64,000 bases of DNA from Eledone cirrhosa (taxonomy: Eukaryota). Position numbers and translations under genes: made by a program. The notes beneath the pieces are model-generated. The model worked only from the letters and a program-made list of their open reading frames with translations. It did not search any database and was not told where the DNA came from. This document shows, piece after piece, positions 57,671 through 64,000 of this stretch (the stretch's first letter is position 1; every line of letters starts with the position of its first letter). The stretch is taken from assembly GCA_964016885.1 (NCBI GenBank), contig OZ024743.1, positions 71,982,001-72,046,000 of the forward strand. Direction: 5' to 3'.

Positions 57671-57672
<2 letters not shown>

Positions 57673-57788
57673 TGAAACAAAATGAAAACGAAATTTCATT
57701 TCTCACTCTTAGTATGGCACTTACCTAAATGTAAGTATGCATGTATACGTACATACATACATGTATACAGACGTACAGTAGCATGCAC

Positions 57789-57819
<31 letters not shown>

Positions 57820-58255
57820 TACATATGCACACAGGCACACATACATATATGCACGTATCAGTTTAGCGGCGCTAACGTCGCTTTGTTCGTTTGTAAACAA
57901 ACTGAACAGCCTGAATTTATGCCATACGGTGTTAAGGCAACCACGTCACCTTTTTGTTCAACACTGACACAGGAACGATGTACTAGTTTCAAGCTTGTTA
58001 GCTATCATCAGCACCGTTTACCCATCTGCCAGATAGTTGAACGTTCGAAAGTATATACTTTCCTTATGAAAATTAACGGCTGAGCAGCCTAATTTGCATA
58101 TTGAGTGAGTTAAATCGGTTAGGCATACCGAAAACGATAAATTGAAACAAAATGAAAACGAAATTTCATTTCTCACTCTTAGTATGGCACTCACTTAAAT
58201 GTAAGTATGCATGTATACGTACATACATATATGTATACAGACGTACAGTAGCATG

Positions 58256-58299
<44 letters not shown>

Positions 58300-58738
58300 T
58301 ACATATGCATACAGGTACACATACATATATGCACGTATCAGTTTAGCGGCGCTAACGTCGCTTTGTTCGTTTGTAAACAAACTGAACAGCCTGAATTTAT
58401 GCCATACGGTGTTAAGGCAACCACGTCACCTTTTTGTTCAACACTGACACAGGAACGATGTACTAGTTTCAAGCTTGTTAGCTATCATCAGCACCGTTTA
58501 CCCATCTGCCAGATAGTTGAACGTTCGAAAGTATATACTTTCCTTATGAAAATTAACGGCTGAGCAGCCTAATTTGCATATTGAGTGAGTTAAATCGGTT
58601 AGGCATACCGAAAACGATAAATTGAAACAAAATGAAAACGAAATTTCATTTCTCACTCTTAGTATGGCACTTACCTAAATGTAAGTATGCATGTATACGT
58701 ACATACATACATGTATACAGACGTACAGTAGCATGCAC

Positions 58739-58771
<33 letters not shown>

Positions 58772-59025
58772 TACATATGCACACAGGCACACATACATAT
58801 ATGCACGTATCAGTTTAGCGGCGCTAACGTCGCTTTGTTCGTTTGTAAACAAACTGAACAGCCTGAATTTATGCCATACGGTGTTAAGGCAACCACGTCA
58901 CCTTTTTGTTCAACACTGACACAGGAACGATGTACTAGTTTCAAGCTTGTTAGCTATCATCAGCACCGTTTACCCATCTGCCAGATAGTTGAACGTTCGA
59001 AAGTATATACTTTCCTTATGAAAAT
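57671..59025 (-). mobile_element. Retrozyme array F1, inverted arm (~2.9 monomers, A-B-A)
   Basis: HHRs at 57974-58018, 58454-58498 and 58926-58970 on the minus strand. Confidence 0.88.
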
Positions 59026-59053
59026 CGGTATGCCTAACCGATTTAACTCACTC

Positions 59054-59078
59054 AATATGCAAATTAGGCTGCTCAGCC
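59054..59078 (+). promoter_or_regulatory. Octamer-containing conserved block (ATGCAAAT at 59057-59064), one per monomer
   Basis: aatatgcaaattaggctgctcagcc; counterpart aatatgcaaatcaggccgatcagtc in F2 (minus strand, ~856-880). Confidence 0.45.
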
Positions 59079-59137
59079 GTTAATTTTCATAAGGAAAGTA
59101 TATACTTTCGAACGTTCAACTATCTGGCAGATGGGTA

Positions 59138-59182
59138 AACGGTGCTGATGATAGCTAACAAGCTTGAAACTAGTACATCGTT
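59138..59182 (+). ncRNA. Type I minimal HHR (representative of 14 identical copies); predicted cleavage after 59175
   Basis: aacggtg-CTGATGA-t-agct(aaca)agct-t-GAAA-ctag-TA^catcgtt; stem I extends further (ctggc/gtcag, gttcaac/gttgaac). Confidence 0.85.
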
Positions 59183-59336
59183 CCTGTGTCAGTGTTGAAC
59201 AAAAAGGTGACGTGGTTGCCTTAACACCGTATGGCATAAATTCAGGCTGTTCAGTTTGTTTACAAACGAACAAAGCGACGTTAGCGCCGCTAAACTGATA
59301 CGTGCATATATGTATGTGTACCTGTATGCATATGTA

Positions 59337-59378
<42 letters not shown>

Positions 59379-59814
59379 CATGCTACTGTACGTCTGTATA
59401 CATATATGTATGTACGTATACATGCATACTTACATTTAAGTGAGTGCCATACTAAGAGTGAGAAATGAAATTTCGTTTTCATTTTGTTTCAATTTATCGT
59501 TTTCGGTATGCCTAACCGATTTAACTCACTCAATATGCAAATTAGGCTGCTCAGCCGTTAATTTTCATAAGGAAAGTATATACTTTCGAACGTTCAACTA
59601 TCTGGCAGATGGGTAAACGGTGCTGATGATAGCTAACAAGCTTGAAACTAGTACATCGTTCCTGTGTCAGTGTTGAACAAAAAGGTGACGTGGTTGCCTT
59701 AACACCGTATGGCATAAATTCAGGCTGTTCAGTTTGTTTACAAACGAACAAAGCGACGTTAGCGCCGCTAAACTGATACGTGCATATATGTATGTGTGCC
59801 TGTGTGCATATGTA

Positions 59815-60284: not shown

Positions 60285-60330
<46 letters not shown>

Positions 60331-60766
60331 CATGCTACTGTACGTCTGTATACATATATGTATGTACGTATACATGCATGCTTACATTTAAGTGAGTGCC
60401 ATACTAAGAGTGAGAAATGAAATTTCGTTTTCATTTTGTTTCAATTTATCGTTTTCGGTATGCCTAACCGATTTAACTCACTCAATATGCAAATTAGGCT
60501 GCTCAGCCGTTAATTTTCATAAGGAAAGTATATACTTTCGAACGTTCAACTATCTGGCAGATGGGTAAACGGTGCTGATGATAGCTAACAAGCTTGAAAC
60601 TAGTACATCGTTCCTGTGTCAGTGTTGAACAAAAAGGTGACGTGGTTGCCTTAACACCGTATGGCATAAATTCAGGCTGTTCAGTTTGTTTACAAACGAA
60701 CAAAGCGACGTTAGCGCCGCTAAACTGATACGTGCATATATGTATGTGTGCCTGTGTGCATATGTA

Positions 60767-60797
<31 letters not shown>

Positions 60798-61236
60798 GTG
60801 CATGCTACTGTACGTCTGTATACATGTATGTATGTACGTATACATGCATACTTACATTTAGGTAAGTGCCATACTAAGAGTGAGAAATGAAATTTCGTTT
60901 TCATTTTGTTTCAATTTATCGTTTTCGGTATGCCTAACCGATTTAACTCACTCAATATGCAAATTAGGCTGCTCAGCCGTTAATTTTCATAAGGAAAGTA
61001 TATACTTTCGAACGTTAAACTATCTGGCAGATGGGTAAACGGTGCTGATGATAGCTAACAAGCTTGAAACTAGTACATCGTTCCTGTGTCAGTGTTGAAC
61101 AAAAAGGTGACGTGGTTGCCTTAACACCGTATGGCATAAATTCAGGCTGTTCAGTTTGTTTACAAACGAACAAAGCGACGTTAGCGCCGCTAAACTGATA
61201 CGTGCATATATGTATGTGTACCTGTATGCATATGTA

Positions 61237-61278
<42 letters not shown>

Positions 61279-61714
61279 CATGCTACTGTACGTCTGTATA
61301 CATATATGTATGTACGTATACATGCATACTTACATTTAAGTGAGTGCCATACTAAGAGTGAGAAATGAAATTTCGTTTTCATTTTGTTTCAATTTATCGT
61401 TTTCGGTATGCCTAACCGATTTAACTCACTCAATATGCAAATTAGGCTGCTCAGCCGTTAATTTTCATAAGGAAAGTATATACTTTCGAACGTTCAACTA
61501 TCTGGCAGATGGGTAAACGGTGCTGATGATAGCTAACAAGCTTGAAACTAGTACATCGTTCCTGTGTCAGTGTTGAACAAAAAGGTGACGTGGTTGCCTT
61601 AACACCGTATGGCATAAATTCAGGCTGTTCAGTTTGTTTACAAACGAACAAAGCGACGTTAGCGCCGCTAAACTGATACGTGCATATATGTATGTGTGCC
61701 TGTGTGCATATGTA

Positions 61715-61745
<31 letters not shown>

Positions 61746-62186
61746 GTGCATGCTACTGTACGTCTGTATACATGTATGTATGTACGTATACATGCATACT
61801 TACATTTAGGTAAGTGCCATACTAAGAGTGAGAAATGAAATTTCGTTTTCATTTTGTTTCAAATTATCGTTTTCGGTATGCCTAACCGATTTAACTCACT
61901 CAATATGCAAATTAGGCTGCTCAGCCGTTAATTTTCATAAGGAAAGTATATACTTTCGAACGTTCAACTATCTGGCAGATGGGTAAACGGTGCTGATGAT
62001 AGCTAACAAGCTTGAAACTAGTACATCGTTCCTGTGTCAGTGTTGAACAAAAAGGTGACGTGGTTGCCTTAACACCGTATGGCATAAATTCAGGCTGTTC
62101 AGTTTGTTTACAAACGAACAAAGCGACGTTAGCGCCGCTAAACTGATACGTGCATATATGTATGTGTACCTGTATGCATATGTATA

Positions 62187-62236
<50 letters not shown>

Positions 62237-62672
62237 CATGCTACTGTACGTCTGTATACATATATGTATGTACGTATACATGCATACTTACATTTAAGTG
62301 AGTGCCATACTAAGAGTAAGAAATGAAATTTCGTTTTCATTTTGTTTCAATTTATCGTTTTCGGTATGCCTAACCGATTTAACTCACTCAATATGCAAAT
62401 TAGGCTGCTCAGCCGTTAATTTTCATAAGGAAAGTATATACTTTCGAACGTTCAACTATCTGGCAGATGGGTAAACGGTGCTGATGATAGCTAACAAGCT
62501 TGAAACTAGTACATCGTTCCTGTGTCAGTGTTGAACAAAAAGGTGACGTGGTTGCCTTAACACCGTATGGCATAAATTCAGGCTGTTCAGTTTGTTTACA
62601 AACGAACAAAGCGACGTTAGCGCCGCTAAACTGATACGTGCATATATGTATGTGTGCCTGTGTGCATATGTA

Positions 62673-62703
<31 letters not shown>

Positions 62704-63142
62704 GTGCATGCTACTGTACGTCTGTATACATGTATGTATGTACGTATACATGCATACTTACATTTAGGTAAGTGCCATACTAAGAGTGAGAAATGAAATT
62801 TCGTTTTCATTTTGTTTCAATTTATCGTTTTCGGTATGCCTAACCGATTTAACTCACTCAATATGCAAATTAGGCTGCTCAGCCGTTAATTTTCATAAGG
62901 AAAGTATATACTTTCGAACGTTCAACTATCTGGCAGATGGGTAAACGGTGCTGATGATAGCTAACAAGCTTGAAACTAGTACATCGTTCCTGTGTCAGTG
63001 TTGAACAAAAAGGTGACGTGGTTGCCTTAACACCGTATGGCATAAATTCAGGCTGTTCAGTTTGTTTACAAACGAACAAAGCGACGTTAGCGCCGCTAAA
63101 CTGATACGTGCATATATGTATGTGTACCTGTATGCATATGTA

Positions 63143-63188
<46 letters not shown>

Positions 63189-64000
63189 CATGCTACTGTA
63201 CGTCTGTATACATATATGTATGTACGTATACATGCATACTTACATTTAAGTGAGTGCCATACTAAGAGTGAGAAATGAAATTTCGTTTTCATTTTGTTTC
63301 AATTTATCGTTTTCGGTATGCCTAACCGATTTAACTCACTCAATATGCAAATTAGGCTGCTCAGCCGTTAATTTTCATAAGGAAAGTATATACTTTCGAA
63401 CGTTCAACTATCTGGCAGATGGGTAAACGGTGCTGATGATAGCTAACAAGCTTGAAACTAGTACATCGTTCCTGTGTCAGTGTTGAACAAAAAGGTGACG
63501 TGGTTGCCTTAACACCGTATGGCATAAATTCAGGCTGTTCAGTTTGTTTACAAACGAACAAAGCGACGTTAGCGCCGCTAAACTGATACGTGCATATATG
63601 TATGTGTGCCTGTGTGCATATGTATATATGTGTGTATATATATATATATATATGTGCATGCTACTGTACGTCTGTATACATGTATGTATGTACGTATACA
63701 TGCATACTTACATTTAGGTAAGTGCCATACTAAGAGTGAGAAATGAAATTTCGTTTTCATTTTGTTTCAATTTATCGTTTTCGGTATGCCTAACCGATTT
63801 AACTCACTCAATATGCAAATTAGGCTGCTCAGCCGTTAATTTTCATAAGGAAAGTATATACTTTCGAACGTTCAACTATCTGGCAGATGGGTAAACGGTG
63901 CTGATGATAGCTAACAAGCTTGAAACTAGTACATCGTTCCTGTGTCAGTGTTGAACAAAAAGGTGACGTGGTTGCCTTAACACCGTATGGCATAAATTCA

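Follow-up and report, generated by a model that had tools for sequence, protein, structure and literature searches.

Inverted, tailed arrays of a hammerhead retrozyme family in Eledone cirrhosa and a shared A>G pattern that suggests copying of edited RNA

Tandem repeats that carry a type I hammerhead ribozyme in each monomer are known as non-LTR (long terminal repeat) retrozymes, and rolling-circle copying by Penelope-like elements (PLEs) is proposed for them (PMC7229834). The step from circular RNA to genome has been under discussion as a proposal since 2014-2020, and a 2026 preprint by Li et al. offers local lengthening of the array in DNA instead (10.64898/2026.07.22.740005). PLE insertions have a signature of their own, made up of partial tandems, an inverted truncated copy and, at one end, a tail (Craig et al.). 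In vitro experiments place this tail between two internal sites at which reverse transcription starts (PMC11167929). Here we describe a hammerhead array on contig OZ024743.1 of Eledone cirrhosa (GCA_964016885.1), in a window of 64,000 nt (positions 71,982,001 to 72,046,000) whose coordinates are used below. The locus is one insertion of a dispersed mobile family with a hammerhead in each monomer, and the retrozyme arrays of this family bear the insertion signature of PLEs in full. The array is probably the product of a PLE reverse transcriptase travelling round a single RNA circle, at this locus a dimer, that had undergone adenosine-to-inosine (A-to-I) editing. While the element class is known, the A>G pattern and the PLE insertion anatomy of retrozyme arrays are the new part, and they suggest that RNA edits become inherited DNA in a heavily editing animal group.

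The retrozymes of coral, mussel and axolotl (PMC7229834) likewise consist of non-coding tandem monomers of low GC content with one type I hammerhead each, give strongly self-paired RNA and occur in genomes with PLEs; the axolotl motif HHR_Amex2 also provides a precedent for the U.U pair at the base of stem II. The likeness rests here on DNA sequence. Insertions of the present element differ in having two arms in inverted orientation, 3' ends that are fixed, a tail, and no visible target-site duplication between their (TA)n flanks; the element also has a 2-nt loop 3 and an internal (TA)n hairpin. Vertebrate retrozymes (10.64898/2026.07.22.740005) have likewise been concluded to depend on PLEs, and their consensus lengths of 51-972 bp include that of our monomer, which the original prediction had called unusually long. 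The vertebrate study, which deals with Xenopus and samples no mollusc, draws the link to PLEs from terminal-repeat homology and co-occurrence. Here, in contrast, it is drawn from chimeras and from the anatomy of the insertions, and the variants point more to copying when the element inserted than to amplification on the spot.

With Hydra and Neptune PLEs (PMC8557442; PMC11167929; PMC4209133) the element shares partial tandems, an inverted 5'-truncated copy, a tail, a hammerhead and a (TA)n target, but it has no reverse-transcriptase or endonuclease frame, its tail measures ~60 nt instead of 30-40 nt, and it reaches up to 16 monomers per arm. Among Chlamys PLEs, non-autonomous ones such as MRC1 are likewise inserted as multicopy head-to-tail units; they belong to a clade without canonical hammerheads and have a 3' end like that of an autonomous partner (PMC8557442), whereas no such partner was found here among the three PLE families compared. 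Newt satellite 2 is again a tandem hammerhead repeat with a weak palindromic stem III. Its promoter of the small nuclear RNA (snRNA) type (PMC2220036) is unsupported here, U1 promoters lacking the octamer of the monomer. Our literature search, which covered mostly titles and abstract openings outside the subscription literature, did not bring up a retrozyme from a cephalopod, retrozyme insertions that are inverted and tailed, or edits that had become fixed in the monomers of an array; the word 'ribozyme' does not occur in the main text of the Octopus vulgaris repeat annotation (PMC13282606).

Anatomy of the array and of the dispersed family

The array extends 2.5 kb beyond the window, to window coordinate ~66564, and contains 19 hammerheads overall. 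Two arms, of 2.9 monomers on the minus strand and ~16 on the plus strand, are joined head-to-head at 59025, each 5'-truncated at an arbitrary point where they meet. Numbering positions (q) from the cut site of the first plus-strand monomer, the minus arm stops at ~q319 (the 'long' 3' end) and the plus arm at ~q258 (the 'short' end). Each then passes into (TA)n, so that both insertion flanks, checked for a target-site duplication, are (TA)n. Monomers measure 468-488 bp (~470-488 bp by the first estimate) and have a GC content of ~0.36. Frames of at least 120 amino acids (aa) occur only in antisense, running through the microsatellite, and a check of the open reading frames of the array found neither a reverse transcriptase nor a GIY-YIG frame; it is thus not an autonomous PLE.

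A 37-nt hammerhead probe had 10,333 exact copies in the genome (control 0), and the young subfamilies have 887 exact junctions of the long end with (TA) genome-wide. In all seven loci examined first (this one and six others), inverted arms were present, with one long and one short end. We then considered 37 young insertions chosen by their long end alone, taken in list order from the first 100 listed junctions with already-fetched ones passed over. An inverted short end was recognized by pattern in 25 and by inspection in 5 more (L144, L150, L153, L164, L172), was missing in 5, and could not be judged in 2. Fixed ends and inversion thus recur at dozens of loci with differing flanks. The tail, ~60 nt, is found at one end only and the target is AT-rich or (TA)n, as in PLEs. 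This anatomy and the dispersal, both observed directly, identify the family as a non-LTR retrozyme, that is, a non-autonomous PLE, and we are confident that it is a young PLE-mobilised element of this known kind. Satellite DNA was considered and ruled out by the thousands of short dispersed insertions with fixed ends, in place of a few long local arrays.

The original prediction of a young, retrozyme-like cephalopod family is borne out in part: structure and covariation agree with a retrozyme, and singleton divergence is ~0.1%, as befits a young family. What it missed is the dispersed PLE-type insertion with inverted arms, together with the alternation of A>G haplotypes described below. The best named relatives of the retroelement proteins of window and genome are octopod (Octopus sinensis, 65%; Argonauta hians, 38%), which is suggestive and not proof of the host.

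Cut sites were intact, that is, read through, in 228 of 232 cases. As the 3' ends differ from the cut site, arms longer than ~260-320 nt were copied across it. At three loci (L160, L167, L048), inverted copies of their own flanking DNA lie inside the insertions, pointing to template switching onto the target at integration.

The hammerhead motif

The 45-nt motif behind the predicted 14 hammerheads has 14 exact matches in the window (11 on the plus strand, 3 on the minus strand) and is absent from shuffled sequence. A generic type I descriptor matched the window 15 times, none of 40 dinucleotide shuffles and a single one of 3000 shuffled monomers. The core boxes are conserved, the cut site is of the NUH form and the order is that of type I. 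Stem I has 7 bp, stem II 4 bp above the U.U pair, and stem III 2 bp with a 2-nt palindromic loop. A stable stem III and the G10.1-C11.1 pair, on which monomeric activity depends, are lacking, so the motif is not a stable monomeric hammerhead. Motifs with a weak palindromic stem III are thought to act as dimers (PMC4209133), and the computed self-duplex of the motif (-4.8 kcal/mol) is compatible with this form.

Across 8 selected relatives, both partners have changed in 5 pairs of stems I and II while the core remained invariant, and the covariation score was reached by 0 of 500 shuffles; this signal comes mostly from one sister family of 64% identity. The Rfam scan suggested along with the prediction gave no match at gathering score; HH9 came closest, scoring 18.5 bits where the cut-off is 52 (E 0.02). 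An E-value scan of 56500-60500 had no hammerhead among the 150 of 179 matches listed, which were microRNA-type and similar chance matches. Preferential conservation of the core, likewise expected at the outset, was visible only between families; among very young copies mutations did not avoid the core (5 in 3341 site observations against 98 in 94134).

Shared A>G variants and the template of the arrays

The monomers had been taken to be alike save for their (TA)n length. Instead, two haplotypes, A and B, alternate strictly at five linked sites through the 16 plus-strand monomers and as B-A-B on the minus strand, both arms ending in B. B has G at q145, 151, 229 and 264 and A has G at q267, the family majority being adenine at all five; an extra G at q167, within the tract, is present in 17 of the 19 monomers of the locus. 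All 9 genome-wide matches of the B double variant fall within this locus, as do 9 of 12 and 8 of 9 matches of two other allele probes, and the outside matches belong to another subfamily without the linked changes.

This pattern was then scored in 53 young insertions drawn from 57 stretches (the 7 first loci, 37 picked by junction and 13 picked as young). We set aside clusters whose mean identity was below 96.5% and, in the remainder, did not score the subfamily site q339, the tract q156-201, either of the two end zones or positions adjoining gaps. Substitutions common to at least two monomers of one insertion were A>G in 15 of 30 cases and T>C in 3, compared with 9 A>G and 15 T>C among 103 singletons (Fisher p 2.6e-6 for A>G; without this locus, 10/25 shared, p 4e-4). 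The excess is limited to q125-270, where a hairpin of 24 + 28 bp is predicted: there all 12 shared changes are A>G, whereas the 21 singletons include 5 A>G and 5 T>C (p 2.3e-5). Outside this region A>G accounts for 3 of 18 shared changes and 4 of 82 singletons. Scored by eye, the (TA)n tract added 9-10 shared A>G and 0 shared T>C. The subfamilies, too, differ by A/G at sites of the hairpin tract, as if earlier edits had founded them, although the direction of these changes is not established.

Strand-specific A>G change in double-stranded RNA is the hallmark of A-to-I editing, and octopus is an extreme case of hyper-editing (PMC5625713). A change present in all monomers and in both arms implies that a single molecule templated them all. 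If a long linear transcript had been edited monomer by monomer, A>G singletons would be expected, and the singletons are not enriched for A>G. A circular template fits the shared variants, and a dimer circle fits the strict alternation. The variant pattern, itself directly observed, is in this sense genomic evidence for the rolling-circle model proposed earlier.

From it and from the anatomy we infer cleavage, a circle, editing and the enzyme, in the following order. Array transcripts would be cut by their hammerheads, which probably act in pairs, as double hammerheads formed by way of the palindromic stem III, and a host ligase would close monomers, at times dimers, into circles. The long UA hairpin of the RNA would undergo A-to-I editing. 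A PLE protein would nick (TA)n DNA and start reverse transcription from two internal sites ~60 nt apart, with one site serving each strand of the target. Both cDNAs would circle the template until drop-off and would then be joined head-to-head. The source of this locus would be one edited dimer circle, copied for ~8 turns on one arm and 1.4 on the other. Extended to the family, this view would make every array a cDNA rolled off one circular RNA that ADAR had edited, with integration through PLE priming at two sites, and we favour it in this form with slightly less assurance than for the present locus.

An unlikely course of events is that a PLE mobilised a short insertion from a linear edited RNA of 1-2 monomers, which subsequently gained length at the DNA level through slippage or unequal crossing-over, in the manner proposed by Li et al. 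Two loci speak for it: at L125 the variants have a period of 2 and changes other than A>G are confined to a repeated two-monomer block, so that block duplication at the DNA level does occur, and at L139 one C>T is common to 2 of 15 monomers. Such lengthening does not agree with variants that are present in both arms or with 5' ends at scattered points. The 103 singletons also far exceed the partly shared variants outside two period-2 loci, none of the 4 scored singletons of the present locus is shared, and stretches become steadily fewer as their hammerhead count rises from 0 to 11.

Truncation points bear on the form of the template. They gather 1-31 nt 3' of the cut (15 of 78 versus 5.1 expected, scan p 0.012), which suggests that the cut site is a real RNA boundary, while exactly at the cut site there was no pile-up (4 of 78 within 10 nt versus 3.4 expected). 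The cluster is compatible with run-off at a linear end, as expected if templates end there, and with stalling or re-opening at the ligated junction of a circle. A linear template could be a multimeric read-through that had escaped cleavage; it could also be a monomer or dimer that had been cut, with the enzyme hopping from the 5' end of this RNA back to its own 3' end. Such a template would accord with the free template switching of the enzyme and with the Anolis PLE, which needs no cleavage in vitro (PMC11167929); the hammerhead may then be weak or dispensable. We nevertheless consider a linear template improbable: the uncleaved multimer predicts A>G singletons, yet the singletons are strand-symmetric, and self-jumping, which agrees with the variants, requires 228 of 232 joins to be precise.

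Least credible of all is that the A>G changes go back to mutation of the DNA, or to the dynamics of a microsatellite, at source loci, or that the array is an assembly artefact. The region is indeed a degenerate (TA)n tract in which slippage is frequent, and a source locus could be absent from a haploid assembly. However, singletons of the same region are symmetric, and identical fixed ends and inversion occur at dozens of loci with different flanks.

Several points weigh against copying of an edited circle. The q125-270 region was picked after the fold had been seen, and variants carried by a single molecule do not count as independent. Taken by themselves, the 37 unbiased loci give a small signal outside the tract (A>G in 4 of 7 shared changes versus 4 of 49 singletons); shared private variants outside the tract occur in only 15 of 45 multi-copy insertions, and only 6 of the 15 shared A>G sites lie within predicted helices of at least 20 bp. 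To these are added the block duplication of L125 and, by analogy, the use of uncleaved RNA by the Anolis PLE. The minimal stem III and the U.U at 10.1-11.1 invite a similar comparison, since 8 of 9 Xenopus retrozyme dimers failed to cleave in vitro (10.64898/2026.07.22.740005). The monomer has no homology to the terminal repeats of PLE-A, PLE-B or PLE-E, the three PLE families compared. Finally, the whole argument is read from genomic DNA and not from RNA.

If copying of edited circles is the correct explanation, the genome records single RNA molecules, and RNA editing supplies heritable changes to a mobile family in the germ line. Hundreds of insertions would then amount to a natural assay for the priming and processivity of PLEs and for editing in the germ line. 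With 887 young insertions at hand, and with edits that label the molecule used as template, the origin of the arrays can be tested from sequence alone.

Penelope-like elements and other repeats

PLEs with long open frames fall into at least three families in this genome, and intact PLE frames are abundant. Judged by comparison of motifs with PMC8557442 and not from a tree, PLE-A (713 aa) and PLE-B (821 aa) are Hydra-like and PLE-E (at least 1167 aa) is Neptune-like; Pfam profiles did not recognize these proteins. In 2 of the 40 first loci an older monomer is joined directly to PLE-B within a single insertion, in L058 with the short end from the monomer and the long end from PLE-B, and in L061 the reverse. 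These joins suggest machinery in common. None was found among the 37 young insertions, and a join to PLE-E (L092) is a chance encounter. By tail length the element resembles PLE-E (~59 nt), the tails of PLE-A and PLE-B being roughly 85-95 nt.

At three loci (L091, L093, L095) PLE-B stands in complete repeats of 3.9 kb, arranged head-to-tail, in which the 821-aa frames are intact and three hammerheads are present; this matches the pattern expected of more-than-unit copying. Close to the 3' end of PLE-A (L039, 3196-3230; L096) lies a hammerhead-like motif whose core is a variant, having A at position 4.

An snRNA-type promoter was also considered for the monomer, whose octamer is retained in two sister families, and is not supported, as 0 of 12 U1 upstream regions contained the octamer. 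The U1 genes (L101-L112), some in 2.7-kb tandem arrays, have in common a short upstream box near -60 and a second one near -260.

Matches to the array stretch appeared in 20 sequencing runs from 16 coded organisms. No RNA run was among those listed, which speaks neither for nor against expression. Of the four runs compared in depth, coverage was very high in X1, low in X6 and zero in X3; raw reads X23, of the same study as X6, gave zero in 1,938 million letters in a search marked too weak to count. Our guess is that these matches are carry-over of a high-copy repeat, and we make no claim of horizontal transfer.

Features of the window are collected in Table 1, including fragments of PLEs and of long interspersed nuclear elements (LINEs).

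Table 1. Array and neighbouring elements in window coordinates
Feature	Position	Strand	Remarks
Inverted arm	57670..59025	-	monomers B, A, B; long 3' end in (TA)n
Main arm	59025..64000	+	strict A/B alternation; continues to short 3' end in (TA)n
Head-to-head junction	59024..59026	.	both arms 5'-truncated
First plus-strand type I hammerhead	59138..59182	+	predicted cut 59175/59176
Other predicted plus cuts	after 59653, 60123, 60605, 61075, 61553, 62023, 62511, 62981, 63463, 63931	+	
Predicted minus cuts	58933, 58461, 57981	-	
A monomer	59176..59653	+	478 nt cut-to-cut; private G 59442; G 59342 common to A and B
B monomer	59654..60123	+	470 nt; private G 59798, 59804, 59874, 59909
UA-rich long hairpin (predicted)	59296..59421	+	24 bp + 28 bp helices with (TA)n tract; putative ADAR substrate
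Tail	59433..59494	+	~60 nt; bounded by the two 3' ends (short, long), where reverse transcription would start
(TA)n target tract	57637..57669	.	also borders 3' end of another hammerhead element
Second hammerhead element	56783-57637		317-bp monomers; two minus hammerheads (cores 57266, 56949)
Older relative of main family	25200-25950	-	~1.6 monomers; hammerhead 25517; same long end; inverted short-end stub
Distantly related hammerhead element	~600-1420	-	core 784; partial tandem copies; same octamer region
PLE-A endonuclease-region fragment	12106-12561	+	
PLE reverse-transcriptase fragment	24434-24958	-	
PLE-E-like 3' end fragment	1-130	-	
LINE fragment	3631-5661	-	Pfam domains of the two LINE fragments: endonuclease, reverse transcriptase
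LINE fragment	41196-41615	+	see preceding row
197-bp unit	51263-51834		three tandem copies

Outside the main array the window contains four more hammerhead-like motifs, which belong to other families. The 317-bp element has a 10-nt palindromic stem III, an inverted arm from ~57443, a tail of ~41 nt and (TA)n flanks, and a 34-nt probe from it has 120 exact genome copies; the main array sits in its end (TA)n. The plus-strand LINE fragment looks RTE-like and the 197-bp unit looks SINE-like (short interspersed nuclear element). Further hammerhead repeat families occur elsewhere in the genome (L031, 2550-3300; L111, 1-630; L048, 5940-6570). Among them are a 310-bp tandem family and the 64%-identical sister, which has a canonical G-C at the base of stem II, the same anatomy and a tail near 66 nt.

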